Assembly: GCA_951406725.2 (NCBI GenBank)
Contig: OX597821.1
Coordinates: forward strand, 118,792,001-118,856,000
Length of the DNA: 64,000 nt
Direction: 5' to 3'
DNA from: Octopus vulgaris
Taxonomy: Eukaryota
The notes under the pieces were generated by a model, which saw only the letters and a list, made by a program, of their open reading frames with translations, did not search any database and was not told where the DNA came from. This document shows, piece after piece, positions 1 through 42,433 of the stretch (positions are counted from its first letter, which is position 1; every line of letters begins with the position of its first letter). The translations under genes were made by a program, and so were the position numbers.

Positions 1-173
1 TCTGCTAGAAGTAGTAGTCAAATCCACCACAATTCACACTTTGTCACCTTAAAGAAGAATACACTGGACAATGTTTTTCTGGCTCGTCTACATGAAGGAT
101 AAAGACAGGATGGTCATGGCTAGAATGCGTTTGATCATAGATCACTGTTTGGTTGACATGAAACTAAACATTT

Positions 174-373
174 TCATGGAAATTCACTGTCTAGATAATT
201 TACTGCGTCAGTACAATCAAATAACTTAAGAGCATTTCTGAGTGTTTCGTGTTTCTTTCGATCACATCTCTTGAACCATCTGTTGAGCATCTCGAATCTC
301 TGTTCATTAGTATCCTTTGGACAGTCACTGATGATAGTTTCCAGCTCAGTTTGTTTAATTCCTAATTCCCTTC
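174..373 (-). CDS. Terminal exon, rest of the death domain ([33 protein letters not shown]...[23 protein letters not shown])
   Basis: Acceptor ttttgcag. Death-domain pattern GR.LG.....I..D.P....EQ..EML..W......L..AL......D....L, stop TGA at 174-176. Confidence 0.88.
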
Positions 374-3300
374 CTGCAAAACATACAAAAATAATAAATA
401 ATTGCAACAACATTAAGAATAAAATAAGAGATGCATATTGCAGATTGTAATAAATATAACAACGATATTATATCGGGAGAGAAATTTAAAAAATAGGTAA
501 GAAAAATGAAAAATATTAGACATTGTTCTCTATTTCTAGGAATGGTGATTAAAAGATAACAAAGAAATTGAAATAAAGGATTGAAATGGAGAAATGTTTT
601 AAAAAGTATTGAAAATTACATTTGAGAGAATTTCTGGTAAAGAGATGGCAGGGAAAATGATTGTGTGGGTAATAGCGTATGAGAACCTAAAGAATCTATT
701 AATATCACTCAAAGAGTCACATTATCTCATCCATCTATCCATTTTCTCTACCCTCTATTCATAAAAGGGTTGTGGGGGTAGAGTCGCCAGGGAACCCCCT
801 TCAAAGTTACTTTCATATTACTGTCCAGTTGGATTCTCAAGCTTGACCAATTCTTTCTTGTGACAGTCTAATCTCATGTCCATAGAACTGGAATTGAGAC
901 CCCTCAATTCAGGGAAATAGTAGCTCAACCTGGAGAGACTCCCAACTCTCTGAGCTGTGCACCTCCTTTTGAGTAACAGATACCATTTAAAGGAATCCCA
1001 TTTCAGCTGCTTTGAATCATCACCTGATCAATACCTGGAATAGTCATCAGTGATGTCTCTCCTACTTCTACTCTCACTAATTAACAATTAAAATATATCA
1101 ACATTTAGAAATAACTTGAACTATCAATACCAGTAATATTAGGTACACCTGGACCAATTAAAATACAAGTGAGCATGACACCAAAATGACCTTAATTACA
1201 CAAAATACAAAATATAATACTGTTAGGTACACAACACATATTTTAAAAGACACCAACTTAACCATGTTGGGTTCATGACTCGTAATAAGGATTTCTTTTA
1301 CTGGACCAATGCCACAATTTAGAGAGAATCCGATAATGGAGAGGTTTTAGAGTAAAGCTAGCAAAGAGAAGAGTTTTAGTTTTGTACGAAAGAAGTTTTG
1401 TAGGAAAGAAGACGGGGTCACAACCATCTACACCATACACATGTAGACGCTTAGGGACTGAAGGAATCACTGCATCTACCAACCTCTACATCATCTGGGG
1501 AAGTTACCATATTTCATAAAAAGGTAGAAGGGGTTAATAGGGATTCTATACTGTGTATTCAATGCACACAATGGGAGATCTGGGGTCAGAGGTAGGTTGA
1601 TGGAGAGGAAGGAGTTTGTGAGTAGTAGATATACAGGAATAGTTAGTTGTAAGAATAACTGTGAAAGGCATGGACGAGAGTTTCTGTTACCTAGGTGACA
1701 TAATTAGGAGTGGGAGAGACTACTCTGAAAGTAAGGTGATTAGAGAAAAAGCTGAGGTGGCAAAATGTACATGGAGCTGTTATCCCTACTGACAAATAAA
1801 GAATTCTCTTTCTGAATGAAGGGTAGATTGTATGATGTATATTTGTAAAGTGCAGCGATGCATTGAATGTGGAGGATGTATGAAAACTGGCAAGAAATGA
1901 GGTGAGAATACTTCACGAGAAATGTAATGTTAGTGTATTGGAATGCTGGAGAAAAGATGAGCTGGAAGAAAAACTGGGTCTCAGTAGAATCAGGGAATAA
2001 TGGGAAGTTTGTATAAATCATACTTTCTGTTCTTACCCATTCACACAAAGAGAAATGGAATATTGTGATGTTCATGATTTCTAAATGATATTTGTATTGT
2101 AAAGGGTGAGGAAAAAATGTCAAATAAGAAATGAAATCCAGTTAAGTTTACCATATTTTAACATGTACAAGGAACCAATTTTTGTTTAAAATTAGGTTTA
2201 AAAAGTATGGGAGCTTCTTATACATGGATAGCATTATAATCCCTTACAAAACCTTATTGCCAAATTTTACGCCTCAAAATTTAAAACAAGGTAATATTTT
2301 TATAATTTCTGTTTTGTTTTATAATTTGTGTTTTGTTTCATTAACTTACAGCGCGGAGTTCAATCCACACGCAAAAACAATCAAAAATGGGGCCTGTCAA
2401 TTTAGAGACAAGACTATATGCTGACCTGGGGCTATAACAAGAGTAAAAAACAAACTGGTCAGGCGAGGGGCTACAACATGTCACACAAGAGGCACACTCT
2501 TGGGTTAACGACGTTGCATTTGATAATGAGATCCTCTTCTCCTAAGAGAAAGAATGATGCCGCACCCGGAACACTTTTCTTCTGAAGATTAAGGCAGATA
2601 TCTACCACAACCATGACAACAACAACCTACCAGTGAACAAAGTAAAAATCTAAAGAAACGAAACCATTGACATTAACTCACCTGTTTGTACATAAACAAC
2701 AACATATTTTAGATCCCTATTTTAAAAGAGAATATTAAATCTTTTGTGGCTTCAAATTAATCCATTTTACCAACCATGCAAACCTTGATTTTATGAAGTT
2801 TCTTCAATAGAATTACTTTGCAGTTAAACTTTCAATTGGAAATTAAAAGAATGGAAACTGTTCTCAATCATTCTAACAAACAGAAGCTCAAGTGAAGCCA
2901 AAATTTCAAAAAATCAATTAGGTATTAAATGCTCACCAACAAAACGCCAGTTACTCCCTAACTTCGTTGCCACTATATTGAGATGATTCTCCTCCAGTTT
3001 AACAGACTCTGAAAATAAAATATTTCCAAATTTTACACATCAAAATTTAATTTCTCTTTCTCTTTTATTAATGGTCTATATTTTGGCATTGTTATTCACA
3101 TCATCAACGGTCAACTGGTGGCCACTATGGGGTTCGACAGCATTTTTATACTTACCATAGTGACCCCATCTAATGACACAATGTTAAGGTCCACACCAGA
3201 ATGGACTAATCTTCATTTCCCTATTAAGATATCCTCTGTAATCAAATAATCTAGTACATATACCTGTTGAACCTCGCATTATTGCATTGAAACTACCTGA

Positions 3301-4234
3301 AATGGTTCAGCAGAAATGGGACTCAAAACATTATAAGCAAGATGAGGATATAGACCAAGCTGCAAGAACCAGATCTTGTATTTGTACAGTGCTTTTGACT
3401 TAACGATCGCTTTAAACCCATTCTCAGTTCGTGCCATGGTGCATAGCATATTCGTAAGCTTCTTATTGGTTTGTCTTTAACTTTTGGAATCGTTTCTCCT
3501 ACTACTTTGAACTCCACTTGCTTCTCAGGTCCTTTGACAAATGAATGTATTAATTAATTGCCTTAAAACTCCTCCTTGGGCAAGTGATTGATCCATACTG
3601 TCTACCCACAACTATATGTTAGAATTGTAATATCGTCCACCGTTGCCATCTTAGGCGATTCAATTTGAGCCATTTCTTCTGGTAAATATGCTAATCTAAG
3701 TAATATCTCCATAACAGACCCAAGCCAGATGACTGACATTTGGCAACCTGCAGCAATTCCAAGCCGATGCCAGTCTGTTGTGAAACATTCTGATGTCTGC
3801 CACATCTTGAAATTGGTACAAAAGCCCCTCATTAGATTGTCAATGTTCTCCAGTGTATAAAAGAAGTCCACTGCTTCCATCAACAAATCCTTTGGTAGAG
3901 GCCCATGAGTGTTTGCCAGATCAATTTATACAACATTGAAATCTTCTTGAGGATATGACAAAGGTCTTACTGGTTGGGCCACATCAAAATACTCCCAGGA
4001 CCATTAAAGAAGTGGTTGGTGTTAGGAAGGGCATGCCACCGGTGAAAAGCTGGAATGTCTTAAGTGAGAGATATTCTTCCACCAACGAATAAGAGCTGAC
4101 CAGGACAGTGACCACCCATCTAAAGCATGAGAGTATGGAAAACATGATTAATGATGAGTACAATATCATTGATTGTATTGAATCTTGTAGCCAAAATCTG
4201 TTTTGAAGAAAGAGAGAGAGAGAGAGAGAGGGGG

Positions 4235-4276
<42 letters not shown>

Positions 4277-6467
4277 CTTTGCTTATCTCAGTAGCAATCC
4301 AAACTCTTCTACTTTGATAAGAACAATGGATGTATTAAAAGATTTAGTATCAGTGAAGCAAAGACATGGGAATTGCTTTTGGAACACTTTTCATCTTAGG
4401 TCCACCAGATTATGTCAGACATCTGACTGAACAAAAACGGCAGCAACAACAACAAAAACAACAACAGCAACATCTGTAACCTTAGTAAAAGTGTAAAGAA
4501 AGAAAGGTCACTGACATTAACTCACCTGTTTCTACATAAACAACAACATATTTTAGATCCCTATTTTAAAAGAGAATATTAAATCGTTTGTGTCTTCTAA
4601 TTAATCCATTTTACCAACCATGCAAACCTTGATTTTATGAAGTTTCTTCAATAGAATTACTTTACAGCTAAACTTTCAATTGAAAATTAAAAGAATGGAA
4701 ACTGTTCTCAATCATTCTAACAAACAGAAGCTCAAATGAAGGTAACATTTCTAAAAATCAATTAGGTATTTTATACTTACCATTTTGCTGGTATTTACTC
4801 CCTAACTTTGTTGACTCTCCTTGAATATGCTTTTTCTCTAGTTTAATAGACTCTGAAAATAAGATATTTCCAAATTTTACTCATCATACTTTAATTTCTC
4901 TTTCTCTATTAATAGTCTATATTTTGTCATTGTTATTCACATCATCAATGGTCAATTGGTGGCCACTATGGTGTTGGACAGCATTTTTATACTTTCCATA
5001 GTGACACCATCTAATGACACAATGTTAAGTTCCACACCAGAATGGTCTAAACTTCATTTCCCGATTAAGATATCCTCCGTAACCAAATAATCTAGTAATT
5101 ATCACAGTTAATTATCACTTGATGTCACTGTTCTCTTCTTCGTTTTGTCTTTCTTTACTTATATCTGTGCCAAATCAATGACCTTGTCCTCACATCTCTA
5201 GACTTCACTAACCAGCATTCTTCTTGCTGCTTAATTCCAATGTCAACCAACTTAGTTCTGCAAAGGTCTTACCACAAACACATGTCACACTATTTCAAGT
5301 AGGATAAACACACACCTGATCTCTTTGTTGAAGGTTGTTGGTTGCAATTTTTAATTTTCACTGAACACATCACACTTCACCAGAATGTTCTCTGACTCAA
5401 GATATATCTGAAGACATTACAATGCTAGTCAGCTTCTCTGATAATTCTACCTAGGTAGAGCAGAAGACGATGACAGGTATCTTAAACCCCCAGTACACAT
5501 GCACAAAACCTCACCAACTACATATATCTGTTGATCCTCGAGTTATTGCATTGAAACTACTTGAAATGGTTCAGAAGAAATGAGACTCAAAACATTATAA
5601 GCAAGATGAGGGTATAGACAAGCTGCATGCACCAGATCTTGTATTTGTCCAGTGCTTTTGACTTAACTATTGCTTTTAACCCATTCTCAGTTCGTGCCAT
5701 GGTCCATAGCATATTCGTAACATCTTATACGTTTAACTTTTGGAATCGTTTCTCCTACTACTTTGAACTTCACTTGCTTCTCATGTCCTCAGACAAATGA
5801 ATGTATTAATCAATTGCCTTAAACCTGCTCCTTGAGAAAGTGATTGATCCATACAGTCTACACACACATATATGTTAGAATTGTAATATCGTCCACCGTT
5901 GCCGTCTTAGGCGATTCCATTTGAGCCATTTCTTCTGGGAAATCTGCTAATCTAAGTAACATCTCCATAACAGACCCAAGCCAGATGACTGACATTTGGC
6001 AACCTACAGCAATTCCAATTTCAAGACGATGCCAGTCTGTTGTGAAACATTCTGATGTCTGCCACAACTTGAAATTGTTACAAAAGCCTCTCATTAGATC
6101 GTCAACGTTCTCCAGTGTATAAAAGAAGTCCACCGCTTCCATCAACAGTTTCTTTGATAGAGGCCCATGAGTGTTTGCCAGATCAATTTATACAACATTG
6201 AAATCTTCTTGAGGATATAACAAAGGTTTTGCTGGTTGGGCCAAAGCAAAATGCTCCCAGGCCCTTTTTAGAAGTGGTTGGTGTTAGGAAGGGCATGCCA
6301 CCAGTGAAAAGCTGGAATGTTTTAAGTGAGAGATATTCTTCAACCAACGAATAAGAGCTGACCAGGACAGTGACCACCCATCTAAAGCATGAGAGTTTGG
6401 AAAACATGATTAATGATGAGTACAATATCATTGATTTTATTGTATATTGTAGCCAAAATCTGTTTTG

Positions 6468-6534
<67 letters not shown>

Positions 6535-8776
6535 TGCTTATCTCAGTAGCAATCGAAACTCTTCTACTTGGATAAGAACATTGGATATATTATAAGTTTC
6601 AGTATCAGTGAAACAAAGACATGGAAATTGCTTTTGGAACACTTTTCATCTTTACTCCACCAGATTAAGTCAGACGTCTGACCGAACAAAAACAGCAACA
6701 ACAACAAAAACAACAACAACAACATCAGTAACCTTAGTAAAAACGTAAAGAAAGGAGAATCATTGACATTAACTCTCCTGTTTATACATAAACAACAACA
6801 TATTTTAGATCCCTATTTTAAAAGAGAATATTAAATCGTTTGTGTCTTCTAATTAATCCAATTTACCAACGATGCAAACCTTGATTTTATGACGTTTCTT
6901 CAATAGAATTACTTTACAGCTAAACTTTCAATTGGAAATTAAAAGAATGGAAACTGTTTTCAATCATTCTAACAAACAAAAGCTCAAATGAATGCAAGGT
7001 TTCTAAAAATCATTTAAATATTTTATACTTACCGTCTTGCTGGTTTTTACTCCCTAACTTTGTTGACTCTCTTTGAATATCATTCTCTTCCAGTGTTAGA
7101 GACTCTGTAAATAAGATATTTCCAAATTTTACACATCAAACTTTAATTTCTCTTTCTCTTTTATTAATGGTCTATATTTTGTCATTGTTATTCACATCAT
7201 CAATTGTCAACCGGTGGCCACAATGGTTTTGGACAGAATTTTTATACTTTCCATAGTGACCCCATCTAATGACACAATGTTAAGGTCCACACCAGAATGG
7301 TCTAAACTTCATTTCCCGATTAAGATATCCTCCGTAATCAAATAATCTAGTAATTATCACATTTAATTATCACTTGATGTCACTGTTCTCTTCTTCGTTT
7401 TGTCTTTCTTCTCTTATATCTGTGCCAAATCAATGACATTGTCCTCACGTCTCTAGACTTCACTAACCAACATTCTTCTTGCTGCTTAATTCCAATGTCA
7501 ACCAAGTTGGTTCTGCAAAGATATTACCACAAACACATGACACACTACTTCAAGTAGGATAAACACACACCTGATCTCTTTGTTGAAGGTTGTTGGTTGT
7601 AATCTTTAATTTTAACTGACCACATCACACGTCAACAGAATGTTCTCTGACTCAAGAAATATCTGAAGACATTACAATGCTAGTCAGCTTCTCTGATAAT
7701 TCTACCCTTTTGGAGCAGAAGACGATGACAAGTGTCTTAAAACCCCCGGTACACATGCACAAAACCTAATCAACTACATATATCGGTTGATCCTCGAGTT
7801 ATTGCACTGAAACTATTTGAAATGGTTCAGAAGGAATGAGACTCAAAGCATTATGAGCAAGATATGATATAGAACAAGCTGCATGCACCAGATCTTGTAT
7901 TTGTCCAGTGTTTTGACTTAACTATTGATTTAACCCATTCTCAGTTCGTGCCATGGTCCATAGCATATTCCTAAGCTTCTTATAGGTTTGTCTTTAACTT
8001 TTGGAATCGTTTCTCCTGCTACTCTTAACTTCACTTGCTTCTCATGTCCTCTGAAAAATGATTGTATTAATTAATTGCCTTAATCCTCCTCCTTGAGCAA
8101 GTGATTGATCCATACAGTCTACCCACAACTATTTGCCTATCGTCTTCGTCTCATGTTAGACTTGTAATACCATCCACCATTGCCATCTTAGGTGATTCCA
8201 ATTGAGACATTTCTTCTGGGAAATCTGCTAATCTAAGTAACATCTCCATAACAGACCCAAGCCAGATGACTGACATTTGGCAACCTACAGCAATTCCAAT
8301 TTCAAGACGATGCCAGTCTGTTGTGAAACATTCTGATGTCTGCCACAACTTGAAATTGTAACAAAAGCCCCTCATTAGATCGTCAACGTTCTCCAGTGTA
8401 TAAAAGAAGTCCACCGCTTCCATCAACAATTTCTTTGGTAGAGGCCCATGAGTGTTTGCCAGATCAAGGCATACGACATTGAAATCTTCTTGAGGACATG
8501 ACAAAGGTTTTACTGGTTGGGCCACAGGAAAATGCTCCCAGAAGCATTCTAGAAGTGGTTGTTGTAAGAAGGGCAAGCCACCAGTGAAAAGCTGGAAGTT
8601 TTTAAGTGAGAGATAATCTTCAACCAACGAATAAGAGCTGACCAGGACAGTGACCACCCATCTAAGCATGATAGTATGGAAAACATGCTTAATGATGAGT
8701 ACAATATCATTGATTGTATTGAATCTTGTAGCCAAAGTTTGTCTTGAAGAAAGAGAGAGAGAAAGAGAGAGAGAGG

Positions 8777-8822
<46 letters not shown>

Positions 8823-11800
8823 CTTTGCTCATCTCAGTAGCAATCGAAACTCTTCTACTTTGATAAGAACAATGGATGTATTAAAAGATTTAGTATCAGT
8901 GAAAGAAAGCCAGGGAAATTGCTTTTGGAAACACTTTTCATCTTTAGTCCACCAGATTAAGTCAGACGTCTGACCGAACAAAAACAGCAACAACAACAAA
9001 AACAACAACAACAACATCTGTAACCTTAGTAAAAATGTAAAGAAAGGAGAATCATTGACATTAAATCTCCTGTTTATACATAAACAACAACATATTTTAG
9101 ATCCCTATTTTAAAAGAGAATATTAAATCCTTTGTGTCTTCTAATTAATCCATTTTACCAACCATGCAAACCTGGATTTTATGAAGTTTCTTCAGTAGAA
9201 TTACTTTACAGCTAAACTTTCAATTGGAAATTAAAAGAATGGAAACTGTTCTCAATCATTCTAACAAACAAAAGCTCGAATGAAGGCAAATTTTCTAAAA
9301 ATCAATTAGGTATTTTATACTTACCTTCTTGCTGGTATTTACTCCCTAACTTTGTTGACCCTCTTTGAATATCATTCTCTTCCAGTGTTACAGACTCTGT
9401 AAATAAGATATTTCCAAATTGTACATATCAAACTTTAATTTCTCTTTCTCTTTTATTAATGGTCTATATTTTGTCATTGTTATTCACATCATCAATGGTC
9501 AACCGGTGGCCACTATGGTTTTGGACAGCATTTTTATACTTTCCATAGTGACCCCATCTAATGACCCAATGTTAAGTTCCACACCAGAAAGGTCTAAACT
9601 TCATTTCCCGATTAAGATATCCTCCGTAATCTAGTAATTATCACATTTAATTATCACTTGATGTCACTGTTCTCTTCTTCGTTTTGTCTTTCTTTTCTTA
9701 TATCTGTGCCAAATCAATGGCCTTGTCCTCACGTCTCTAGACTTCACTAACCAGCATTCTTCTTGCTGCTTAATTCCAATGTCAACCAAGTTGGTTCTGC
9801 AAAGATCTTACCACAAACACATGACACACTACTTCAAGGAGGATAAACACACACCTGATCTCTTTGTTGAAGGTTGTTGGTTGTAATCTTTAATTTTAAC
9901 TGACCACATCACACATCACAAGAATGTTCTCTGACTCAAGATATATCTGAAGACATTACAATGCTAGTCAGCTTCTCTGATATTTCTACCTAGGTAGCGC
10001 AGAAGACTATGACAGGTGTCTTAAAATCCCCAGTACACATGCACAAAACCTCATCAACTACATATATCTGTTCACCCTCGCATTAATGCACTGAAACTCC
10101 TTGAAATGGTTCAGAAGGAATGAGACTCAACCATGCTGCAAGCACCAGATCTTGTATTTGTGCAGTGCTTTTGACTTAACTATTGCTTTTAACCCATTCT
10201 CAGTTCGTGCCATGGTCCATAGCATATTCCTAAACTTCTTATAGGTTTGTCTTTAACTTTTGGAATCGTTTCTCCTGCTACATTGAACTCCACTTCTTCT
10301 CATGTCCTTTGACAAATGAATGTATTAATCAATTGCCTTAAACCTCCTCCTTGAGCAAGTGATTGATAAATACAGTCTATCCACAGCTATTTGCCTATCG
10401 TCTTCGTCTCATGTTAGACTTGTAATACCATCCACCATTGCCATCTTAGGTGATTCCAATTGAGACATTTCTTCTGGGAAATCTGCTATTCTAAGTAACA
10501 TCTCCATAACAGACCCAAGCCAGATGACTGATATTTGGCAACCTACAGCAATTCCAATTTCAAGACGATGCCAGTCTGTTGTGAAACATTCTGATGTCTG
10601 CCACAACTTGAACTTGTTACAAAAGCCCATCATTAGATCGTCAACGTTCTCCAGCGTATAAAAGAAGTCCACTGCTTCCATCAACAATTTCTTTTGTAGA
10701 GGCCCATGAGTGTTTGCCAGATCAAGTCATACAACATTGAAATATTCTTGAGGATATAACAAAGGTTTTGCTGTTTGGGCCACAGTAAAATGCTCCTAGG
10801 ACCATTAAAGAAGTGGTTGGTGTTAGGAAGGGCAAGCCACCAGTGAAAAGCTGGAATGTTTTAAGTGAGAGATATTCTTCAACCAACCAATAAGAGCTGA
10901 CCAGGACAGTGACCACCCATCTAAAACATGAGAGTATGGAAAACATGATTAATGATGAGTACAATGTCATTGATTGTATTGAATCTTGTAGCCAAAATCT
11001 GTCTTGAAGAAAGAGAGAGAGAGAGAGAGACTTTGCTCATCTCAGTAGCAATCGAAACTCTTGTACTTGGATGTATTAAAAGATTTAGTATCAGTGAAAG
11101 ACAGACATGGAAATAGCTTTTGGAACACTGTTCATCTTAGGTCCACCATATTATGTCAGTTATCTGACCGAAGAAAAACAGCAGCAACAACAACAAAAAC
11201 AACAACAACAACATTTGTAACCTTAGTAAAAATATAAAGAAAGAAAAGTCACTGACATTAACTCATCTGTTTATACATAAACAACAACATATTTTAGATC
11301 CCTATTTTAAAAGAGAATATTAAATCCTTTGGGTCTTCTAATTAATCCATTTTACCAACCATGCAAACAAGATGAGGATATAGACCAAGCTGCAAGCACC
11401 AGATCTTGTATTTAACTATTACTTTTAACCCATTCTCAGTTCGTGCCATGGTCCATAACATATTCCTAAACTTCTTATAGGTTTGTCTTTAACTTTTGGA
11501 ATCGTTTCTCCTGCTACATTGAACTCCACTTGCTTCTTATTTCCTTTGACAAATCAACGTATTAATTAATTGCCTTAATCCTCCTCCTTGAGCAAGTGAT
11601 TGATCCATACAGTCTACCCACAACTATTTGCCTATCGTCTTCGTCTCATGTTAGACTTGTAATACCATCCACCATTGCCATCTTAGGTGATTCCAATTGA
11701 GACATTTCTTCTGGGAAATCTGCTATTCTAAGTAACATCTCCATAACAGACCCAAGCCAGATGACTGATATTTGGCAAGCAACAGCAATTTCAAGACGAT

Positions 11801-12245
11801 GCCAGTCTGTTGTGAAACATTCTGATGTCTGCCACATCTTGAAATTGTTACAAAAGCCCATCATTGGATCGTCAACGTTCTCCAGTGTATAAAAGAAGTC
11901 CACTGCTTCCATCAACTATTTCTTTTGTAGAGGCCCATGAGTGTTTGCCAGATCAAGTCATACAACATTGAAATCTTCTTGAGGATATGACAAAGGTTTT
12001 ACTGCTTGTGCCACAGTAAAATGCTCCCAGGACCTTTTAAGAAGTGGTTGATGTTAGGAAGGGCATGTCACCAGTGAAAAGCTGGAATGTTTTAAGTGAG
12101 AGATATTCTTCAACCAACGAATAAGAGCTGACCAGGACAGTGACCACCCATCTAAAGCATGAGAGTTTGGAAAACATGATTAATGATGAGTACAATATCA
12201 TTGATTTTATTGAATCTTGTAGCCAAAATTTGTTTTGAAGAACGC

Positions 12246-12282
<37 letters not shown>

Positions 12283-15200
12283 TTTGCTCATCTCAGTAGC
12301 AAACCAAACTCTTGTACTTGGATAAGAACAATGGATGTATTAAAAGATTTAGTATCGACGAAAGAAAGACATGGAAATTGCTTTTGGAACACTTTTCATC
12401 TGAAGTCTGTGAGAATATGACATCTGGCTGAACAATAACAAAAATAAACTCTTAGAAAATTTAAAACAAACGAAAACCTTGTGAATACTCGTTCGTTTAC
12501 CCTTAAACAGCAACATATTTTATTTCCCGATTCCAAAAGACAATATTAACTCTATTTTGTCTAAACTCATTTCTCCATATTACCAAACTCAGAAGATATG
12601 TGATGAGATTTCAGTAATATTTTTAAGATTATTAATTTACATAAGAATGATCATAAATATGGAATGCAAATGTTATTCAAACCATGTAGCAAGTGTTGAT
12701 TATATATGGTTACAAACAAGGAGTTGTGTGTTCGAATCACATCAGGAATTCCTATTTTATTCTTCTTTGTATATTTTATACGTGAACATAAATACTTTGT
12801 TTATATGTAAACATATGTTCACAGTTCAATAAAATTAATTTAACGATCAATATTTTAAATGTTCTTTTAGTTATCACAACAATATATGTCCTAACCTGAG
12901 ACATTCCGGGTACGTACCCTAACAAGCGATGACATCTCAGATCAAACAGTGGACTAATATTATTGTTTAGCATTTTCATAACATGATAAATCATGAAGAA
13001 TTTCTGGAGGATAATTTTGCAAAATATGTTGAAACTGTCGATGCCATCTTTCACCAAATAAACATTCACAGCAACACAAAACAATTCATTAAGCAAAACA
13101 ATTAATTAAGCAACCAAAGCCTCTAATGTTTTTCTTTAACCGCTCAGTTGAGATTTTCTCATTGAATCTCCTATTTTACAAAAATCATTCTGATGTTCTC
13201 GTTACTAACACTGTCTTTATCAGATACTGATAAATACTGATAAATCATTAATCCCCTCTAATCACTCGCAATTGACTGTAAAAACATGATATTTACTGAG
13301 GGAATCTGGCAGTTTTATTAATATTTCTGTTAGTCGCCGTTTAACTTGCTCTATCACTCATTAGTCTTATCTTGCAAACAGTATCCTCTTGAAGTGAATC
13401 AAACCTTGTATTTGGACGAAGACGAAGTTTGGTGGATGAGGTGATTGATAAAGTATCACAAAGAAAAGACACTGTTATCATAAATCTGCTACATTTATGA
13501 CAGGTGTGACTCTATATAGTAACATGAAGTATATTATTCAACAGCATAAAGTCAATGAGACAAACAGACAGATCATCAAATAGTATTCTTACCGAATCCA
13601 CGTTTGTCAACTATAACTTGTTGACACTTGGGACAATTTTTAGGCTCATTTTCTGAACAGCAATCTTTGCATGTAACAGTGTGCTCACATGGTTGAAACG
13701 TCACTGTAGCTTCACTAGATTTACACAGCAGACATCTGTTGAACAAAACATAGAGACATATCACTGATAACATTCATTTATAACAAATATTGCATTGAGT
13801 ACATGTTTAGAGTACAGAATATTATGAGACACTGCTAGGACCAGTAAAAGTACATAAAAATATCTTCGTTAAAAAATTACGTAAATGCAAATGTTTTTGT
13901 ATATGAATTCTACGCTCACACGTGTATGTGTGTGTGTGTGTGTGTGAGGCATTCACATACATATTGTTAAATATATGTCTTGACTCTGGAACATCACAAA
14001 AAATTGCTTTACACACAACGAGCTACATATATTCCAGAAACATACTTCAATTCTTGTAGAGGGACAATTTCTTCTGAACAAAACCTAATCTGTTTAACAA
14101 GTTCTCTAAACGTAGACAATTCCTTTTGAATTGTATGGATGGACAGATAGAATACAATTGCCCTAGCTTCTTGTATTTGTGAACAATGTGTTACAAACCA
14201 GGCCACAGTTCAATAATAAAACAATGCCCCAAGCAACATGTCTGATATGCACATACCAAACCTGAGGATAGTTTTGAAGACTGATGAGTTGAATGCAATG
14301 AATGACAGCTTTCTATCTGCCTTCAATGCACAACTAATCTCTTGATGATCCCAGTCTAAGAAAAAGGTAAAAAATTGTTCTATGATGGATGGGATATAGA
14401 AAACAGCCCAACTACCAAACTGGTCCTTTCAGTGCCTGACCTGTGTGTCTTTTCCAACCATGGCTGTCAAACAAAAACAACCCATTCACAGGGAAATTGC
14501 GGATATCTGACGTAACATATATACAAACAAAAACACCTTACAGAATTGCACAAATGCTCTGCATCCAAACCCGCCCCTAGTTAAAGCTGAATCCAGGTTT
14601 ATAGAGAAGGCCATGTTATCTGCCATACATGATGTAATAATGTTTTTGGTGCATCTGAAGAAATCATTGATTTATAAACATTTTCTCTACAACTTGTCCA
14701 CATCAAATGTGTTCCTCCAAAAACATGTTCTCTGCTTCATTAGATTGAATCATAACCAAAATTAATTAGATTAACCTTCTACTGAGGCATGTGCATACTG
14801 TCTAGCTTCTAATGAGGCAGAGTGTGACTATTGAATATTTTGTTGAATCTATTTGTACGGGGGAAGTGCTTATTTACTAAGCTAAGAAACATCTTACTCG
14901 GGTTTTAACACTTAAAGAGAAATTGCAGAGTGTGGTATAACAATCAACACAACCAACCAATCATGTGAATGTAATCAAAATAGAGTTCTTCGACTGTATT
15001 TTCTATTTCTTGTTCTTCTTACAGTTGTTGTGTGGTCTTTGGTCAAAACACAGAATAACGTATTGGGAGGATTAAAACTAAACAAAACATATGAACATAA
15101 TTGCGTACAAAATAAAAAAAATTCTCTGCTTTGTCTTGTCATTGTTAGAGAATACTTACAGTGGTGGTGGGAAAAGCGTTTTAATTCTTTCCTTTAAATT

Positions 15201-15848
15201 TGTATCCTTTATAAGATCCAGCGGCATCATATTCCGTTTGTTTCTGTGGTAAAAGTTGGCTCCATTGTCGGCCAGATAACAAGCCACTGCTAGGCTTGAA
15301 AGCTTGCCTCCTTTGCTAAGCTGGAGCTTCTTGTAGTACTTCAAATGATGGAATATAAAAAAGACAAGTACAATATTACACAAATATAAACAAAATCATA
15401 ACATCAAGTCAAATACAAGAAATATAATGGAAATTATATATGTTAAAAATAACAGAGAACACACAGACTTATCCAAATATATCAACAATGTTTCCATAAT
15501 TAATAAAGAAACATCTTTGGATGATGAAGGTGAAGTAAAAGAAGTAAGAATTGGTGTCACGGTTGAGGAAACACACCAACACATTCTAGTTGATAAACTG
15601 TTGAAACTGTTAGTCTGACAGACAATTCCAGTAATGGAGGGAGAAGGGCATTTGACTGCCAGAATAGCTTCTTCGTATCAAAGTGGACATTTCCACAACA
15701 CAAAGATGACCATCAAATGTCTGAAATACAGTCACAAATCTGTAGAGACCGTTACTCATGTGGGAATCAGTGAGTTGCTTCAAGTGCGCAAAATTTGACT
15801 GTAAATACTGTTAGATCTACTGATGGTTAGATGTTGATGTATTTGTAT

Positions 15849-15892
<44 letters not shown>

Positions 15893-15999
15893 ACACAGTA
15901 AGTAAACAAATGACAGAGACACTCAACCAATTCATTGGAAGTTACATGTATGGATCAAAACAGTTTGGATCATTAAACTATTTTGATCCATATATATTG

Positions 16000-16045
<46 letters not shown>

Positions 16046-16371
16046 ACATATAAGGGATGGCCATATTAGGACATCCGACTCACTAGAAAGAGCAGTTAAA
16101 CTCCAAACCACTAATATCGGGTAAACGTTTTTATTTCTCTTTCCATTTCAGAATTACAACTATTAGTGGTTTGGAGTTTAACTGCACTTTCTAGTGAGTC
16201 GGATGTCTTATTATGGCCATCCCTTATATGTTTGAATGTATATTATATAGTCTATTGACTATATTTTCTTTCTCACTTGAACGCTGGTAGCGGAGAATTT
16301 TTTTGCTACCCTAAAATTTATTAATTAATAAATATAAATAAATGAATATATATATATATATATATATATAT

Positions 16372-16455
<84 letters not shown>

Positions 16456-16983: not shown

Positions 16984-18060
16984 TGTATGTATGTATGTAT
17001 GTATGTACGTATGTATGTATATTGCTTTATTGTATCCATTGTCTAGTGTTCTAACATTCAATATTGTTATGGCACGTCCATAAGAAGCCAGAGGATACAT
17101 GTTGTGTACAAGAAGTAAGACAGGGAGCTGTTTTTTCAGAATCCCTCATAGAATGGAATGGATGTATTTATCATGGCACTTGCATTCTAAAGGTTGTCAT
17201 CATGTCTCTCTGTTTCTCTTTCTATCTCTTATAAATAAATCCACACGTATATATTTACAAATAATTCTAAAACTTACCTTATCCAAGACTGTTAAGGATT
17301 CATCCTCAGAATGGAACTCCTCTTTCCTCACCGCAAGGTGAAGACAATTGTTTCCGATATCATCGACCACATTTACGTCTGCTCCTTTAGAAATGAATTC
17401 CTGCATTATTCTGAAGTTGCCGCAAGAGACAGCTTGAAGAAATGGTGTTATACCATCCCAGTTTGTTATGTTCAATTTCACCGAATCCTTTGTGGAAGTA
17501 AAAATAGAGAATGAAAATTTACATGAAAACCAGGGTGGCTATCAATGTGTCATTACTGCCTTCTACTGGGTACTTGATCAAACCGATCACGTACATTTCA
17601 TGTTTGTCAGTAAAGTTAGCCTTACATAAGGTCCCTCTATAACTTGCTATGAGTGTGTTTAAGAGACATGATAAATCTATTTAGATGTCATAAACAGATT
17701 GGTTCAGCCTAATCTATGTTTATCCCTCGCTATAGTAAGTTTTAAGGGAGTTAAACTGCACTGAGCACAAGATTAATGGATTAAGCTTGGGAAAGAAGAA
17801 CTATACGACTTTTTCTCTACATTTGATGTTAATATATTAATAAGGGGCTCAGAATAGTTATATGTATATATATAGTTATATATATAGTTATATATATATA
17901 TATATATATATATATCATCATCATCATCAAAATATAGGAACAGCCATAATAGGCTGTTCAACCTACTAGAAATAGCAGCCAAGGCTTAAACCGCAAACAA
18001 GTATTAATTCCCAAAACCAGGAGAAAATTTTAAAAAAACATTTACCCTGATATATATATA

Positions 18061-22057: not shown

Positions 22058-25000
22058 TCTGTACAGTGCCAATACCTAGAGTAGAGTTTGGTGCAGTCTT
22101 CTGACTAACCAGCTCCTATCAAAACGTCCAACCCATGCCAGCATGGAAAATGGACGTTGAATGATGATGATGTTGATGGTAGTGGTGGTGGTGGTTGTGG
22201 TGGTGATGGCGAATGGCAGACATAAAATGTGATATATTTGGGTTAATTTCATAATAATCTTGTACACATTTCGTATAATCTAGTCATTAAAAATGGTATT
22301 GTCTGTGGTGGTGGTCAGCTGAACTGTCACCACACCATTACCATTACCATTATTATCATGTTCCTCCACATACCCTAGACCTGTCATTTAAAGGTTAGTG
22401 GGGTACAGCTGATTAAATCTACCCCCAGCATTTCACTGGTACTCTGATAATGTCAATATTGAACAGATCAATAAAATACAAGAGAGTGTATATAATATGT
22501 ATATGTCAACTAACCTGGGATAGAATCAATGCCACGACATCATAGTTTTGCCTAAAAATTATAGAAAAAAGAAAGAAACATAGAAAATATGAAAATCATA
22601 GAGGTTGAGATAATTAATAATTATTAGGTCATTAATTAATGAAAATAGATGTAATGAGCTACCTAAAACCTGTTTACATCAATAATTATATAGACGCACA
22701 TAAATATAATCGATATATACACTCTAACCAGTTGATTATTCATATATACACATCTGAATAAACACCACAATGTTTTCTATGGTACAACGAACAGCAAGTT
22801 GACCTCAGCAGGATTTGAACTCAGAATGCAAAGTGTTGTAAATACATACCAACAGTAATAAGAAACAGGAAGAGGAAAGAATCATTGAATATTACTGTTT
22901 GATATTAAATGACCCTCTAGATATCACTGGTATAGATTATATTGACCCCAGAGTGACAATAGATACTCTGGCATTATTTGAACTTGGAGCATAAAAAACA
23001 AAAGTAAATCCTGTAAGGGGGTGGTTCTGTCATTTAACCTAGGGTCAGAGGAAAAAGGGACATTATAAGAGGAGGAGGGAGAGAGAGAGAGTATGAGAGA
23101 GAGAGAGAAAGAGAGAGTAATTGGGGGTTTTACGTGGAATCAAACAAAGAAGACAAAGGATTTGAATCTGTAATGTTGTGGTATGGGGGATGAGGTGGAA
23201 TAATGGATTTAGTCAGGTGACAAGAACAAGAATAACAATAATTATGGGGACGATTAATTAATGCTGTAGATTACAGTGTCATTACACTATGAGAGAGAGT
23301 AGAAGGTTGACCCATGGTGGGAATAGGATATGATTGAGTCAATAAAACAAAACATTATTGAAAGGTAAGAAAGAGATTTGGATATTCCAGATCCAATGAG
23401 GACTTACCTGACAACTGCCAGATGTAGCGGAGTGTCACCAGATTTATTTATCATACGGACGTCAATGTCAGATTTCTTCAACAGATGTTTAACAACCTCT
23501 GTGTGACCATCAGCACTGGCCAGATGTAATGGCGTTTCACGATCATTATTCGCCGAATTTACGTTAATGCTAGACTGCTTCAGTAGATGTTCAACAACCT
23601 GTAGGTGTCCCTTCATAGAGGCGAGATGTAGTGGTGTGTTCCGATCATTATCCTCAGCATTTACATCAACATCAGACTGCTTCAGTAGATGTTCAACAGT
23701 CGCTAGGTGTCCACGAGCGGAAGCCAGAGATAGAGGTGTGTCACCGTCCTTATTCTTTACGCTGACGACCATTCCAGATCGCTGCAGTAGAAGTTTAAAA
23801 GTCTCTGGCTGTCCATTTATACATGCCCGATGTAAAGCTGTGTTGCCGTCTTTATTTTCCATACGCACGTCAATGTCGGACTTATTCAACAAATGTTTAA
23901 CAGTTTCTGTGTGACCATCAGCACTGGCCAGATGTAATGGCGTTTCACCATCATTATTCGCGGCATTTACGTTAATGCTAGACTGCTTCAGTAGATGTTC
24001 AACAACTTCTAGGTGTCCCTTCATAGAGGCGAGATGTAGTGGTGTGTTCCGATCATTATCCTCAGCATTTACATCAACATCAGACTGCTTCAGTAGATGT
24101 TCAACAGTCGCTAGGTGTCCACGAGCGGAAGCCAGAGATAGAGGTGTGTCACCGTCCTTATTCCTTACGCTGACGACCATTCCAGATCGCTGCAGTAGAA
24201 GTTTAAAAGTCTCTGGCTGTCCATTTATACATGCCCGATGTAATGCTGTGTTGCCGTATTTATTTACCATACGGACGTCAATGTCAGACTTCTTCAACAG
24301 ATGTGTAACAACCTCTGTGTGTCCATTAGCACTGGCCAGATGTAATGGCGTTTCAAGATTATTATTCGCCGAATTTACGTTAATGCTAGACTGCTTCAGT
24401 AGATGTTCAACAACCTGTAGGTGTCCCTTCATAGAGGCGCCATGTAGTGGTGTGTCCCGATCATTATCCACAGCATTTACATCAACATCAGACTGCTTCA
24501 GTAGATGTTCAACAGTCGCTAGGTGCCCCTTCATAGAGGCGAGATGTAGTGGTGTGTTCCGATCATTATCCTCAGCATTTACATCAACATCAGACTGATT
24601 CAGTAGATGTTCAACAACCTCTAGGTGTCCACGATCGCAAGCCAGAGACAGAGGTGTGTTACCGACCTTATTCTTTACGCTCATGACCATTCCAGATTGC
24701 TGCAGTAGAAGTTTAAAAGTCTCTGGCTGTCCATTTATACATGCCCGGTGTAATGCTGTGTTGCCGTATTTATTTACCATACGGACGTCAATGTCAGACT
24801 TCTTCAACAGATGTTTAACAACCTCTGTGTGTCCATCAGCACTGGCCAGATGTAATGGCGTTTCACGATCATTATTCGCCGCATTTACGTTAATGCTAGA
24901 CTGCTTCAGTAGATGTTCAACAACCTCTAGGTGTCCACGAGCGCAAGCCAGAGATAGAGGTGTGTCACCGTCCTTATTCTTTACGCTGACAACCATTCCA

Positions 25001-28000
25001 GATCGCTGCAGTAGAAGTTTAAAAGTCTCTGGCTGTCCATTTATACATGCCTGATGTAAAGCTGTGTTGCCGTATTTATTTACCATACGGACGTCAATGT
25101 CAGACTTCTTCAACAGATGTTTAACGATTTCTGTGTGACCATCAGCACTGGCCAGATGTAATGGCGTTTCACCATCATTATTCGCCGCATTTACGTTAAT
25201 GCTAGACTGCTTCAGTAGATGTTCAACAACCTGTAGGTGTCCCTTCATAGAGGCGAGATGTAGTGGTGTGTTCCGATCATTATCCTCAGCATTTACATCA
25301 ACATCAGACTGCTTCAGTAGATGTTCAACAGTCGCTAGGTGTCCACGAGCGGAAGCCAGAGATAGAGGTGTGTCACCGTCCTTATTCCTTACGCTGACGA
25401 CCATTCCAGATCGCTGCAGTAGAAGTTTAAAAGTCTCTGGCTGTCCATTTATACATGCCCGATGTAATGCTGTGTTGCCGTATTTATTTACCATACGGAC
25501 GTCAATGTCAGACTTCTTCAACAGATGTTTAACAACCTCTGTGTGTCCATCAGCACTGGCCAGTTGTAATGGCGTTTCACGATTATTATTCGCCGCATTT
25601 ACGTTAATGCTAGACTGCTTCAGTAGATGTTCAACAGTCGCTAGATGTCCCTTCATAGAGGCGAGATGTAGTGGTGTGTCCCGATCATTATCCACAGCAT
25701 TTACATCAACATCAGACTGCTTCAGTAGATGTTCAACAGTCGCTAGGTGCCCCTTCATAGAGGCGAAGTGTAGTGGTGTGTTCCGATCATTATCCTCAGC
25801 ATTTACATCAACATCAGACTGCTTCAGTAGATGTTCAACAACCTCTAGGTGTCCACGAGCGGAAGCCAGAGATAGAGGTGTGTCACCGTGGTTATTCTTT
25901 ACGCTTACGAACATTCCAGATCGCTGCAGTAGAAGTTTAAATGTCTCTGGCTCTCCATTTATACATGCCCGATGTAATGCTGTGTTGCCGTATTTATTTA
26001 CCATACGGACGTCAATGTCAGACTTCTTCAACAGATATTTAACGATTTCTGTGTGACCACCAACACTAGCCAGATGTAATGGCGTTTCACGATCATTATT
26101 TGGCGCATTTACGTTAATGCTAGACTGCTTCAGTAGATGTTCAACAACTTGTAGGTGTCCCTTCATAGAGGCGAGATGTAGTGGTGTGTTCCGATCATTA
26201 TCCTCAGCATTTACATCAATATCAGACTGCTTCAGTAGATGTTCAACAGTCGCTAGGTGTCCACGAGCGGAAGCCAGAGATAGAGGTGTGTTACCGTCCT
26301 TATTCTTTACGCTGACGACCATTCCAGATCGCTGCAGTAGAAGTTTAAAAGTCTCTGGCTGTCCATTTATACATGCCCGGTGTAATGCTGTGTTGCCGTA
26401 TTTAGTTACCATACGGACGTCAATGTCAGACTTCTTCAACAGATATTTAACGATTTCTGTGTGACCACCAGCACTAGCCAGATGTAATGGTGTTTCACGA
26501 TTATTATTTGGCGCATTTACGTTAATGCTAGACTTCTTCAGTAGATGTCCAACAACCTCTGTGTGTCCACGAGCACAGGCCAGGTGGAGTGGTGTATCAC
26601 CATCGTTATTTTGATGATTTACCTGAAAAATCAATAAAAAACACTAAAAATAGTGGCTAGAAGGGGACGGGTAGAACCCTTAACGCATATTCAGAAACAG
26701 AATGTAAGGAATAAGGTGGAATGATGATGGCCGGCCTTGAGTAAGTAAATGAACTTTGTATTGAGTTTATATTGTACTTACACACACACACACACATACG
26801 CACACACACACACACACACACATACATACACACACACACATTCTCTTATTTTCAATTTTGTAGCAAGCAATTATGTCTAGATTATGGGAAAGAAAATGAA
26901 GAGAGTGTGTTCTGGGGATTGATCTAAAACTCATCAAATATTTTTAAAATTTTATTCTATCAATATAATTATCATCTACACCCTCAAAAATGAAGAATTT
27001 TCCTTAAAGAATATGAATCATTGGAAAGTTGTGAGGAAACAAAATCTTGGGGCATTAAACTATAAATAGATTAACATGCTGTTTATTTTCGTAATATAGT
27101 GTAAGTTGTCTTTAAAATTATGAAAGTACATTTCAATAGAAACTCGAAGTAACGACAGTGACATCTTGTAATGTCCTGTAAATGGCGTATGTGACTTACA
27201 AACGTATCCAATACATAAACAGGCAGAAATTTAGTGTAACATAAAAGTCGTACGTATAATTTATATAGGATGAAAAGGGTCACATTAAGGAGAAAACATG
27301 ACAGTCATGGATGACCGAAATGAGATTTGTGAATAGTTTTTCACAATCTCCAAATTTGTTTCGCTCCACACGGCCATGAAGACACGATGTAAATAAAACA
27401 TTATTAATCCCGTTCTGTTACATAATTTTCTTTTTGCCGAACATCGATCGCCCTTCTTTAATTTGTGTCCAGATGCTGTCAGTGTTTGGATACAGAAATC
27501 TTAGACAATGGTTGACAACTTCATGAGTAGACAACTTGCCGGGACCCACATAAAAAAGCCTATCCATTTGTTATGTGAAGGAATGAAGGGTGACATCCAA
27601 AGCGAGGAGGGACGAGGGATGAAATTCTAATGTTTCACACTGATCAATTCCGGTTTCTATAGCAACATATTTTAATTCTTTGACGGACAATTTGTTTTAT
27701 GTAGGATGTCATCGCTACCTAATATCATGGAGAGTCCTAGAAAATTCAGACCCCTACATACACAGGGGCAAGTGTTGTAGACTGTGCATAGCCAAACGGG
27801 CGAGGATATTAAAGGACTCCGTCGACCTGGGGACACCCTTAACTCCAGAATAGAAGACTTCTCACCCAGTTGGCACTTCAGGAGATTCCTGCTGGCACCG
27901 TGGGATCCATAAGAAAACAGAGTCGATTACGAATAACAACCAAAGGAAGACAATTCCTGTTGCTGACGTAGGGTAACGATGCCCTTTTCTTCTCCATTTT

Positions 28001-39210: not shown

Positions 39211-39446
39211 ATCTGTAAAATAATGTGACAATTATTCAATAGCCAAGATAAAACACTGAGTTTCAGATGCCGAGGTGGAAATCCACAACACGATCTCTTC
39301 GGTTATCTGGTCATCTATATTCTATGTTCCTTCTATATTTCAGTCATTTCAGATAACCGAAGAGATGGTGTTGTGGATTTCTCCCTCGGCATCCGAAACT
39401 CAGCGTTATATCTTGGCTATTGGATAATTGTGACATATTATTTTAC

Positions 39447-39450
<4 letters not shown>
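39211..39450. repeat. Inverted repeat, ~100-bp arms with 40-bp spacer, just 5' of the Penelope ORF
   Basis: atctgtaaaataat...ctcttcggttatctg (39211-39309) pairs with cagataaccgaagag...attattttacagat (39350-39450). Confidence 0.9.
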
Positions 39451-39480
<30 letters not shown>

Positions 39481-39484
<4 letters not shown>

Positions 39485-42433
39485 TTGATAAGGACGTTTA
39501 TAAGCGCCTTGATGAGGACGTTTATAAGCGCCTGATTTCGAATAGTGTCACAGACACATACAAAAAAGACAACACGAATATATACAAAGAGGTGAACTTA
39601 GAAGCAAGAGGAATAGCTAACGATCTTAAGATTAGCGATAGGATTGAATATCTTTCACCACGACCAGCTTTTATTACTCTGAAAGACCATAAAGCCAATT
39701 TTAGTAGAAACCCCAAATGTAGATTGATAAATCCGGCTAAAACTGAGATAGGAATTATTAGCAAAAATAGTTTGGACCCTATTTTAGTTAAGTTAGATAG
39801 TGAAGTAGACTTGAGAATTTGGAAGAATAGTAAGTCAGTCATAGAGTGGTTTAAAGGTATTAGCTATAAGAATAATTGTAGTTTCACACAATTCGACATT
39901 ATTGACTTTTACCCGTCAATATCTAGGACGTTGCTCCTAAGGGCATTGGACTTCGCCAAGCAATATGTCAACATCGATAGCTCGGAAATTGATATTATTA
40001 TGCATGCGAGGAAATCGCTTCTTTTTTCGAGGATTCCACCTGGATTAAGAAGACTGAGGATTCTCTTTTCGATGTACCGATGGGGGCATACGACGGGGCT
40101 GAGTTATGTATGCTCATAAGAGCCTTTATCCTCCATCTAAAAATAGAATTCCCTTTTATAGATGCAGGTTTATATAGGGATGACGGCCTTATAGCCACGC
40201 ATAATCTAAACGGCCATGAATCAGATAGACTTAGGAAGGACCTCATAGCTTTCTTTCAAAGGATGGGCTTACGGGTTACGATAGATGCTAACCTGAATAG
40301 TGTAGATTTTTTAGACGTAAATTTTAATGCAAGATCGGATAGATTTAAACCTTTCCGTAAGCCCAATGAAAAGCTATCGTATATTAGCAAAGATTCGAAC
40401 CATCCACCAGTTATCCTTAGGAACTTAGTCAGCAATGTAGGTAGAAGAATATCTTCAATTTCTTCGGACGAGGCAGCATTCCATAATGCTGCACCTTATT
40501 ACGATAGCGCATTAAAGAATAGTGGATTCTCTGAGAAGATCCAGTTCAACCAGCGTAATGCTGATAATAATGCTGCACGAAGAACTAGGACCAGGAAAGT
40601 TTTGTGGTTCAACCCGGCTTTCAATTTGGCCGTAAAGACTAATATAGGTAAGGAATTTTTGAGATTAGTCTCTAAGCATTTTAAGCAGGGTCATAAATTC
40701 TATAGGATTTTAATAGAAGAACCCTGAAGGTTAGCTATTCTTGTTGCAGAAATTTCGCCTCTTACATTAGCCAACATAATAGGAAGCTAATTGAGATTAG
40801 ACATGGTGCCGAGCCCATTAAGAAATGCAATTTCAAAAACGAAAGCTCCTGTCCGTTAGAAGGGAAATGTCTAGTGAAAGGAGTAGTTTATAGAGCCAAG
40901 GTGCAAGTGGAAGGCTCATCAGAATACAAGACATACACAGGGGCTTCAGAAAATTCATTTAAAACAAGATTTTATTCTCATAAAAATTCATTTAAATACC
41001 CAGAGAATAGGAAGAAAACCAGCCTAGCAAAATATGTCTGGGAACTAAAAGAAAAGGAAGCCCCACCTTTCAACGTGACATGGAGCATTCTGGACAGGGC
41101 GGCACCATACAGGCATGGAGCATACAAAAATAATTTCAAGTGCAAACTTTGTCTATTAGAAAAAATGTACATCTTATTCAAAGACAATAATTCTTTGAAT
41201 CAAAGAAGTGAGCTAATGAACTTATGTAGGCACGCGGCTAAATTTAAAATGTCGAATATAAATATACCATATGGATAGAGTATATATTTTGTATTTTTGA
41301 TTTTTGAAATTTTGATTTTGACTCTTGAACGATGAGCGCTACGATGGATTTTGTTTCCAAGCAATGCGGATCTTAATCCGTATAGCAAAGTCTTATGTTT
41401 CTACATATACATCAGGAAAAACCTTCGACCCTGTTTTCAGGTTATTGTATTGTATAGGATTACCTTGATTATTTATATTACCTTGATTATTTATAAATGA
41501 TCCAAAATAGGGTGTTATATTTTATTTTATATGTCTTTCGTATATATTTTTATTAATGCACCCATTCTTTTAAAAAAAGCAATGTTTTTTTAAAAAAAGC
41601 AATGTTGTCAAAATTAGAATGTTGATGTAAGTATGTGTATAGCCGAGGATATGTATTTGTAAGCATGCGTATCTGTGTATGTGTAAGTGAGAGTATGTTT
41701 GTGCTTAAGCACACATATACACGACTGTATGTGTATGTATCCATTCGAACTTGTTTGTATACTTGTCTCCATATATGCCAATAATGCCGTTACACAGATT
41801 GTATACATAATTTTTTCTTATTTCGTTTTTTTCCCCACCCCTCCTTCGTTCCTTTTTCTCTCTCTTCCTTTCTTTCGTTCCCCCTTACTCAGTATATGAG
41901 AATCGCTACATACATGATTTTTAACTTGCGTGCGAGATGGTTTGCGTGAATATATGTACACATGCATTTATGTGTATATTTAGATTTATATTCATACGTC
42001 TGTATATGTATGGCGTTGGCGCGCATCCTTTTGTGTATGTTGATATATATATGCACATTTTAATAAAAATATGTATTGCAGTGTAATATTTATAACAGGT
42101 TTAATTCCTATGAATTAATTTATACTTTCTTCATTAACGTCAATATGTATTTTATTCAATGTAAGGTTTTTTCCTCGGATTTTATAATTTTTTATAAGTT
42201 TTTTTTATATATATATACATATATTTTTGACCTTTTTGTTTATCGCTCGAAGATTGACCGTTTTTTTCTAAAGGGCCAATCAAACAAGTCCATTTCTTTT
42301 TAAAGGTGTAGCGTTTGTAAGAGTCTAGATTGAATTGATATATCGGTTCCATTCTAGCAAAAACTGTCTGATGAACGGCAACGTGAAACTCAGAGTAACA
42401 GATTTTGTTGAATTTTCTGCTGCTTAAAATAAA

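Follow-up and report, generated by a model that had tools for sequence, protein, structure and literature searches.

The 64,000-nucleotide (nt) stretch of Octopus vulgaris DNA analysed here (the window; assembly GCA_951406725.2, contig OX597821.1, positions 118,792,001 to 118,856,000) carries on its minus strand an ankyrin-RING-death-domain (ANK-RING-DD) gene. Its nearest proteins are 'MIB2-like' models of Octopus vulgaris and O. sinensis, and the octopus proteins called 'E3 ubiquitin-protein ligase MIB2-like' have the same exon order and domains as this gene; the name is an automatic database name. Mind bomb (MIB1/MIB2) E3 ligases contain N-terminal MIB/HERC2 and ZZ domains, plus ankyrin repeats and a RING; the Pfam lists of the related octopus proteins were not taken to indicate MIB/HERC2 or ZZ domains. 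The interval between the RING exon and the death-domain (DD) exon of the octopus gene holds a tandem array with four 72-nt exons of phase 1-1, named U4, U3, U2 and U1 (Table 1), and U1 differs from the other three far more than the surrounding introns do. A preliminary description of the locus had spoken of five units. The exon exists in four copies, not five, and the fifth, partial unit yielded no remnant of it when one was sought beside positions 12431-12692.

Comparison of U1 with U2 reveals differences at 24 of 72 nt and at 13 of 24 amino acids (aa), and 22 of the 24 differences are located in codons that change the amino acid, exactly as counted by hand in the preliminary description. Its estimate of about eight substitutions and one small indel in the adjacent intron is also reproduced (3011-3130 against 4855-4971: 8 of 117 aligned bases substituted and a single gap of 3 nt). 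Over the whole flanks the two units differ at 18 of 235 positions upstream and at 20 of 276 downstream, and the exon stands well above these 38 differences in 511 positions (Fisher p=1.1e-8). The distances of U1 from U2, U3 and U4 are 24, 24 and 22 per 72 nt, respectively. Among the overlapping 72-nt intronic windows of the same three comparisons (n=1344, 1348 and 1313), the most diverged have 10, 15 and 12 differences, with a median of 5 over the windows, so the exon remains the outlier that it was proposed to be, with no intronic window near it.

The excess is not restricted to U1. U2 differs from both U3 and U4 at 13 of 72 exon positions against about 6% in the introns (p about 0.001), while the exons of U3 and U4 differ at 4 of 72 positions, on par with their introns (p=0.76). 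Overall, exon distances are graded (4, 13 and 22-24 per 72), whereas intron distances are nearly flat, with pairwise divergence of 4.5-8.6% in the flanks and 6.9-9.1% in the b segments of units 1-4, b being an intronic segment of about 1.1 kb that recurs through the array. The excess continues for about 45 nt of the downstream intron, where U1 differs from the other units at 8-13 of 45 positions.

Two alternatives had been offered for this reversal of the usual pattern, namely positive selection that erased the DD helices in the extra copies, and gene conversion that homogenises the introns while selection keeps the exon types distinct. The number of differences in amino-acid-changing codons does not help in choosing between them. 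When 24 differences are placed neutrally, a mean of 21.2 fall in such codons and 22 or more are obtained with a probability of 0.47 (9923 stop-free runs of 20000). The observed 22 of 24 is therefore the neutral expectation and is uninformative on selection; such a preponderance is no evidence of positive selection, and this locus illustrates why.

Codon-based comparison of U1 and U2 by the Nei-Gojobori method gives a non-synonymous distance (dN) of 0.467 and a synonymous distance (dS) of 0.469, against an intron distance of 0.078; the corresponding proportions pN and pS do not differ (Fisher p=1), with low power at about 14 synonymous sites. On the tree ((U1,U2),(U3,U4)) the exon requires 33 steps, with a dN/dS-type ratio of 0.84-1.41. 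The check on dN/dS that had been suggested for the exons thus returns a ratio of about 1 without excess of dN, and a ratio significantly above 1 was found neither for U1/U2 nor on the four-copy tree. Both classes of change are instead raised 3- to 4-fold over the intron rate: with expectations derived from intron transition and transversion rates, there are 6-9 synonymous steps against 2.1 expected (p=0.021 for the minimum) and 24-27 non-synonymous steps against 6.7 (p=2e-7). Between U2 and U3, five synonymous steps are obligatory where 1.0 is expected (p=0.004). Positive selection on the exon is possible but is not shown by the present data. Averaging over a partly constrained exon can mask selected sites behind a ratio near 1, and some diversifying selection on surface residues of the DD probably adds to the exon divergence, although dN/dS does not show it.

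The positive-selection alternative is not supported by the evidence given for it, in view of the neutral count and of dN being about equal to dS, but the change in the DD core that it invoked is confirmed. U1 retains all six core hydrophobic positions and U2-U4 retain three of the six, with losses at V13 (to E or G), W21 (to Y or N) and V24 (to N, D or E). All 25 distinct intact units of the family have V, A or I at position 13 and V, L, I or A at position 24; W21 was demanded by the extraction pattern, so its presence in 25 of 25 is not independent evidence, and it is also present in the RIPK1 alignment. The grand average of hydropathy (GRAVY) is -0.29 for U1 and -1.39 to -1.63 for U2-U4. Judged from the sequence, the loss of V13, W21 and V24 in the extra copies is real and would be due to either selection or relaxed constraint. 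However, the differences cannot all be read as losses in the extra copies, as had been assumed. In the family alignment K20, Q22 and Q23 of U2-U4 are the commonest states (Q22 in 12 of 25, Q23 in 15 of 25), whereas F23 of U1 is rare, being shared only with P0007 among 16 units. Both lineages have therefore changed.

The paralogous O. sinensis model P0007 covers positions 2-78 of PF00531 when its U1-type stretch is included, and this stretch makes up the first ~18 positions. The 23-aa exons on their own, U1 included, gave no Pfam match. The last coding exon scores 26.5 bits against PF00531 (cut-off 22.6) and has an acceptor and a stop codon. The O. bimaculoides family member P0010 weakly matches the RIPK1 DD at E=2e-5 and the cIAP/XIAP RING at E=5e-4 to 2e-3, and in the alignment the mini-exon falls on the beginning of the RIPK1 domain. 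The structures compared were RIPK1, CRADD and ankyrin death domains and IAP-type RINGs (PDB 9kv7, 6ac5, 2of5, 4o6x, 6hpr and 3eb5). Unlike RIPK1 and the IAPs, the octopus gene has no kinase or BIR domain that we could see.

Degenerate copies of the first DD exon recur within the octopus ANK-RING-DD family. The family is large (39 clusters), with highly diverged DDs and some identical RING exons. A literature search of titles and the starts of abstracts, its coverage lying outside subscription journals, returned no paper describing it. The RING exon of our gene is identical in protein to XP_036370842.1, XP_036370845.1 and CAJ1099198.1, and U1 shares 18 of 24 residues with the corresponding part of XP_036370842.1. 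U2-type exons are missing from all related models retrieved. XP_029656683.1 and its relatives and O. bimaculoides P0048 have, at the same position, a degenerate copy of 24 residues that is of another kind; among the proteins listed, five (P0022, P0049 and P0050 of O. sinensis, P0048 and P0045 of O. bimaculoides) show a degenerate copy that lies exactly 24 residues before the intact unit and lacks both V13 and W21. A weak tree of 24 columns places U2-U4 in a clade (98/91) apart from a clade of four of these copies (100/97), which suggests that the two sets of degenerate copies may have arisen separately.

In an AlphaFold model of P0048 (alignment of 27 rows), the only segment with a predicted local distance difference test score (pLDDT) below 50 is 180-208, over the degenerate copy, while the intact copy is a confident helix. 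A single-sequence model of P0022 was uninformative (pLDDT 43). U2-U4 are predicted to form a hydrophilic, flexible and disordered linker between RING and DD. Derivation of all linker exons of the family from DD exons was considered and rejected: among 31 linkers scored against the unit profile, most short ones reach only -4 to 7 bits, and only in-register 24-residue copies were accepted. Some paralogues (the P0019 cluster, P0021 and P0022) carry, between RING and DD, arrayed linker repeats of 12 to 17 residues, and one O. sinensis gene has isoform models numbered to X22, many of which differ in these repeats.

Splicing was followed in four of the 24 listed sequencing runs, over positions 100-4200 of the window; X2 and X8 among them were taken as RNA by guess. 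Contigs of both X2 and X8 join 372/373 to 2936/2937 with canonical intron ends (CT..AC), which shows splicing of U1 to the DD exon. The contig from X2 closely resembles the gene in the window; the changes listed for that from X8 match the paralogue P0007. A loose end of X2 at 3009 (two contigs, agreement 0.62) can be read, letter by letter, as an alphabetical mix of the end of the RING exon and the end of U2 at 30 of 30 positions (predicted agreement 0.63); the same mix with U4 or U3 fits 29 and 28 of 30, respectively, the comparison being made by eye with an inferred tie rule. This single loose end, seen in one run, makes it probable that U1 is joined to a U2-type exon by splicing. Exon skipping is not claimed from the RING-to-U1 loose end, since a P0007-like paralogue, annotated with that junction, is present in the same run. 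The variants listed between the DD exon (174-373) and the close X2 contig comprise five amino-acid replacements, a single synonymous change and an indel of 6 nt at 248, and they suggest that the death domain is highly diverse among alleles or orthologues.

Classic tandem exon duplications in animal genes give mutually exclusive exons that keep the fold. The octopus array resembles tandem exon duplication in that a symmetric phase 1-1 exon has been duplicated with its flanks. It departs from the classic cases in that the U2-type exon appears joined to U1, a junction at odds with mutually exclusive exons, and in that the copies are degenerate.

Analysis of the introns points to exchange between the units. 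Copies of the b segment are 5-9% diverged from each other and have mosaic ancestry. In units 1-4 the 35 informative sites comprise 17 that support 12|34, 14 that support 14|23 and 4 that support 13|24, and like patterns cluster along the segment (p=0.016 in a test similar to the pairwise homoplasy index). With all five units, leaving out the diverged start of unit 5, the clustering is still seen (p=0.043), and over-long identical runs occur in 3 of 10 pairs (p=0.0003, 0.005 and 0.015, uncorrected).

Between genes, the RING exon is identical at 47 of 47 aa to those of O. sinensis P0003 and P0007 and of O. vulgaris P0005, whereas the DD exon differs from P0007, P0003 and P0005 at 21, 43 and 39 of 61 aa (30-65% identical). 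The RING is not intrinsically frozen, because it differs at 17 of 47 aa from that of O. bimaculoides P0010. The simplest reading of the contrast between RING and DD would be recent exchange or shuffling among paralogues that halts at the DD exons. Identical RINGs on paralogues with diverged DDs may represent gene-level concerted evolution or exon shuffling.

The excess at synonymous exon sites and the mosaic intronic segments are best fitted by the second of the two alternatives, homogenised introns with exon types kept distinct. In our view this reading is rather probable, with the four exons as tandem copies of the first DD exon. The exon lineages would then be much older than the intron divergence of about 7% implies. 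Patchy gene conversion or unequal crossing-over between the repeats would keep the introns near 7% and would have erased most of their older divergence, while tracts crossing the exon would be removed by selection. U2-type sequence brought into U1 would break the DD, and with U1-type sequence U2-U4 would gain another helix 1-2, in competition for the fold. The extra copies, having lost the fold, may have become the RING-to-DD linker, in which the U2-type exon would be spliced in and disordered.

Several observations weigh against this explanation. The p-value for clustering in the five-unit test rose from 0.005 to 0.043 when unit 5 was used without its diverged start, and no significant identical run is present in 7 of 10 five-unit pairs and in 5 of 6 four-unit pairs. 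The immediate flanks are without mosaic, as 10 of 11 informative sites of the exon block give U1U2|U3U4. The excess of synonymous change is modest and owes much to codons in which the amino acid changes too; purely synonymous codons number 2-3 per pair (the five pairs except U3/U4) and are significant in none (p=0.14-0.39). In another organism, here called organism B and compared through unphased contig summaries of that one organism, a contig differs at 17 of 348 positions over U1 and its flank, and there are also contigs with the 3-nt deletion specific to U2. Since organism B shares U1-type and U2-type flanks, the duplication is shared and the units are not more alike within than between organisms; exchange must therefore be slow on that scale. 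Also, the low pLDDT of the degenerate copy in P0048 may reflect a thin alignment, as 5 of 27 rows carry such a copy.

Another explanation, which we regard as unlikely, is that the duplication is young (about 7-8%) and that strong positive selection parted the exons, stripping the extra copies of the DD core and diversifying U1, with synonymous steps carried in multiply hit codons. The roughly 4-fold excess of non-synonymous steps would follow from such selection, the flank sites fit a single tree, and changes on the U2-U4 lineage hit three of the six core positions radically. A comparable picture is obtained for the DD exon itself: its 21 changes in 61 aa from P0007 need at least 28 nt, and only 33 letters differ across 262 nt of the matching contig, so the change in the DD is mostly amino-acid altering. 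However, a dN/dS of about 1 and synonymous steps above the intron rate, in the whole tree as well as between U2 and U3, are not what this explanation predicts. For two separate comparisons it would have to assume a rate 4-5 times neutral across the domain, and it leaves the mosaic b segments and the identical RING exons unexplained. It is also conceivable, but quite improbable, that within a young duplication one of the exon types came from an older paralogue of the cluster, either through a short conversion tract (exon plus ~45 nt) or through unequal crossing-over between look-alike introns, with no general homogenisation of introns. The shoulder of divergence in the downstream intron and the many close paralogues suit an import, and so do the groupings of U1 with P0007 (87/77) and, weakly (83/58), of U2-U4 with the 'type B' paralogue P0003, with which they share H-I-Q and S-K. 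But the tree has 24 columns and its forks are unsupported, T15 and an identical 14-nt core are common to U1 and U2-U4, a second import would be required for U2 against U3 and U4, and donor DNA was not found.

Even less can be attributed to one or two clustered multi-base mutations, such as a template switch or micro-inversion at the 3' end of the exon, which are very improbable as the cause of much of the excess. The last 12 nt of U2 and U3 do agree with the reverse-complemented neighbourhood of U1 at 10 of 12 positions (shuffle p=0.004-0.006) and those of U4 at 9 of 12 (p=0.053), in a window picked after seeing the data. Yet the QQ of U2-U4 is the commonest state of the family and a paralogue loose end has the same CAG CAA, so an inversion is not needed to make QQ; moreover, the 5' half of the exon is equally diverged (9-11 of 36 nt).

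The pattern favoured here, introns homogenised around exons that stay distinct, is known as an opsin-type island of divergence, and its setting inside one gene makes this a compact and tidy case, an intragenic example of divergence resisting homogenisation. In gibbon L/M opsins dN is reported not to exceed dS, with both above the intron level (PMC3213168); the divergence-peak model under gene conversion is treated in a review (PMC3924837). As in primate L/M (red/green) opsins, the octopus exons outdiverge their flanking introns, synonymous and non-synonymous changes are both raised, and exchange tracts lie in introns. Unlike in the opsins, the octopus repeats are single-exon units inside one gene, their introns are still ~7% different, and one exon type, instead of gaining a tuned function, has lost its fold. 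A literature search on intron homogenisation around duplicated exons returned nothing describing this case.

It is possible, although we hold it doubtful, that ANK-RING-DD genes build a variable, alternatively spliced spacer between RING and DD by repeatedly duplicating and disarming the first DD exon, that selection strips V13 and W21 in separate lineages and then shields both exon types from conversion, and that the RIPK1-like DDs diversify as the specificity module of an undescribed, possibly immune, family of ubiquitin-ligase adaptors. If so, this would be a path by which an exon of a folded domain can repeatedly become a linker exon.

Table 1. Exons of the ANK-RING-DD gene and parts of the tandem array, in positions of the window.
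Feature	Positions	Strand	Remarks
Last coding exon, most of the death domain	174-373	-	Pfam PF00531 positions 23-82, E=7e-6
U1, 72-nt exon, start of the death domain	2937-3008	-	six core hydrophobic positions intact; AG..GT
U2, degenerate copy (V13E, W21Y, V24N)	4781-4852	-	GRAVY -1.49; AG..GT
U3, degenerate copy, candidate exon	7033-7104	-	frame open, AG..GT intact
U4, degenerate copy, candidate exon	9325-9396	-	frame open, AG..GT intact
RING-finger exon	13593-13735	-	PF13920, E=2e-9; ends in phase 1
Exon preceding RING	~15160-15338	-	acceptor position inferred from homologous proteins
Ankyrin-repeat exon	17278-17487	-
Ankyrin-repeat open frame, 1079 codons	23404-26643	-
Block a1, U1 plus flanks	2616-3256		~88% identical overall to 4461-5097, 6713-7352, 9005-9638
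Intronic segment b1	3247-4460		copies ~5519-6712, 7767-9004, 10053-11186, 11365-12439
Segment c, ~420 nt	5097-5519		also ~7352-7767, 9638-10053; precedes U2, U3, U4, absent before U1
Downstream flank, truncated copy without exon	11187-11368
Downstream flank, far more diverged copy, array edge	12431-12692		72-78% over best part

The diverged flank at the edge of the array was considered as proof of an old duplication and dropped, as it has no adjacent exon remnant and is of high depth in run X3; it is probably a dispersed repeat. It may, paired with 2616-2783, have acted as a direct repeat in the first duplication event. Frames of some 105 codons without a stop are present in segment b, frameshifted between copies, and had no Pfam match and matched hypothetical clusters only in the Atlas; it is possibly a decayed repeat element. 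Candidate exons of 33 and 45 nt within segments b and c were not supported, the weak 45-nt candidate in segment c being listed at 7468-7512.

Upstream in the gene, the frame at 23404-26643 is likely a large exon of it. It holds about 31 ankyrin repeats, with a 102-nt period and a higher-order period of 408 nt, and far exceeds the related annotated models in length. An imperfect inverted repeat at 15852-16423 (71% over 586 columns) surrounds AT/CA microsatellites. Elsewhere in the window, broken frames at 39229-41278, 54135-54611 and 63214-63804 resemble what we take to be pieces of Penelope-type reverse transcriptase and GIY-YIG endonuclease, and a 145-nt unit is repeated three times in tandem at 60920-61353 with 95% identity.

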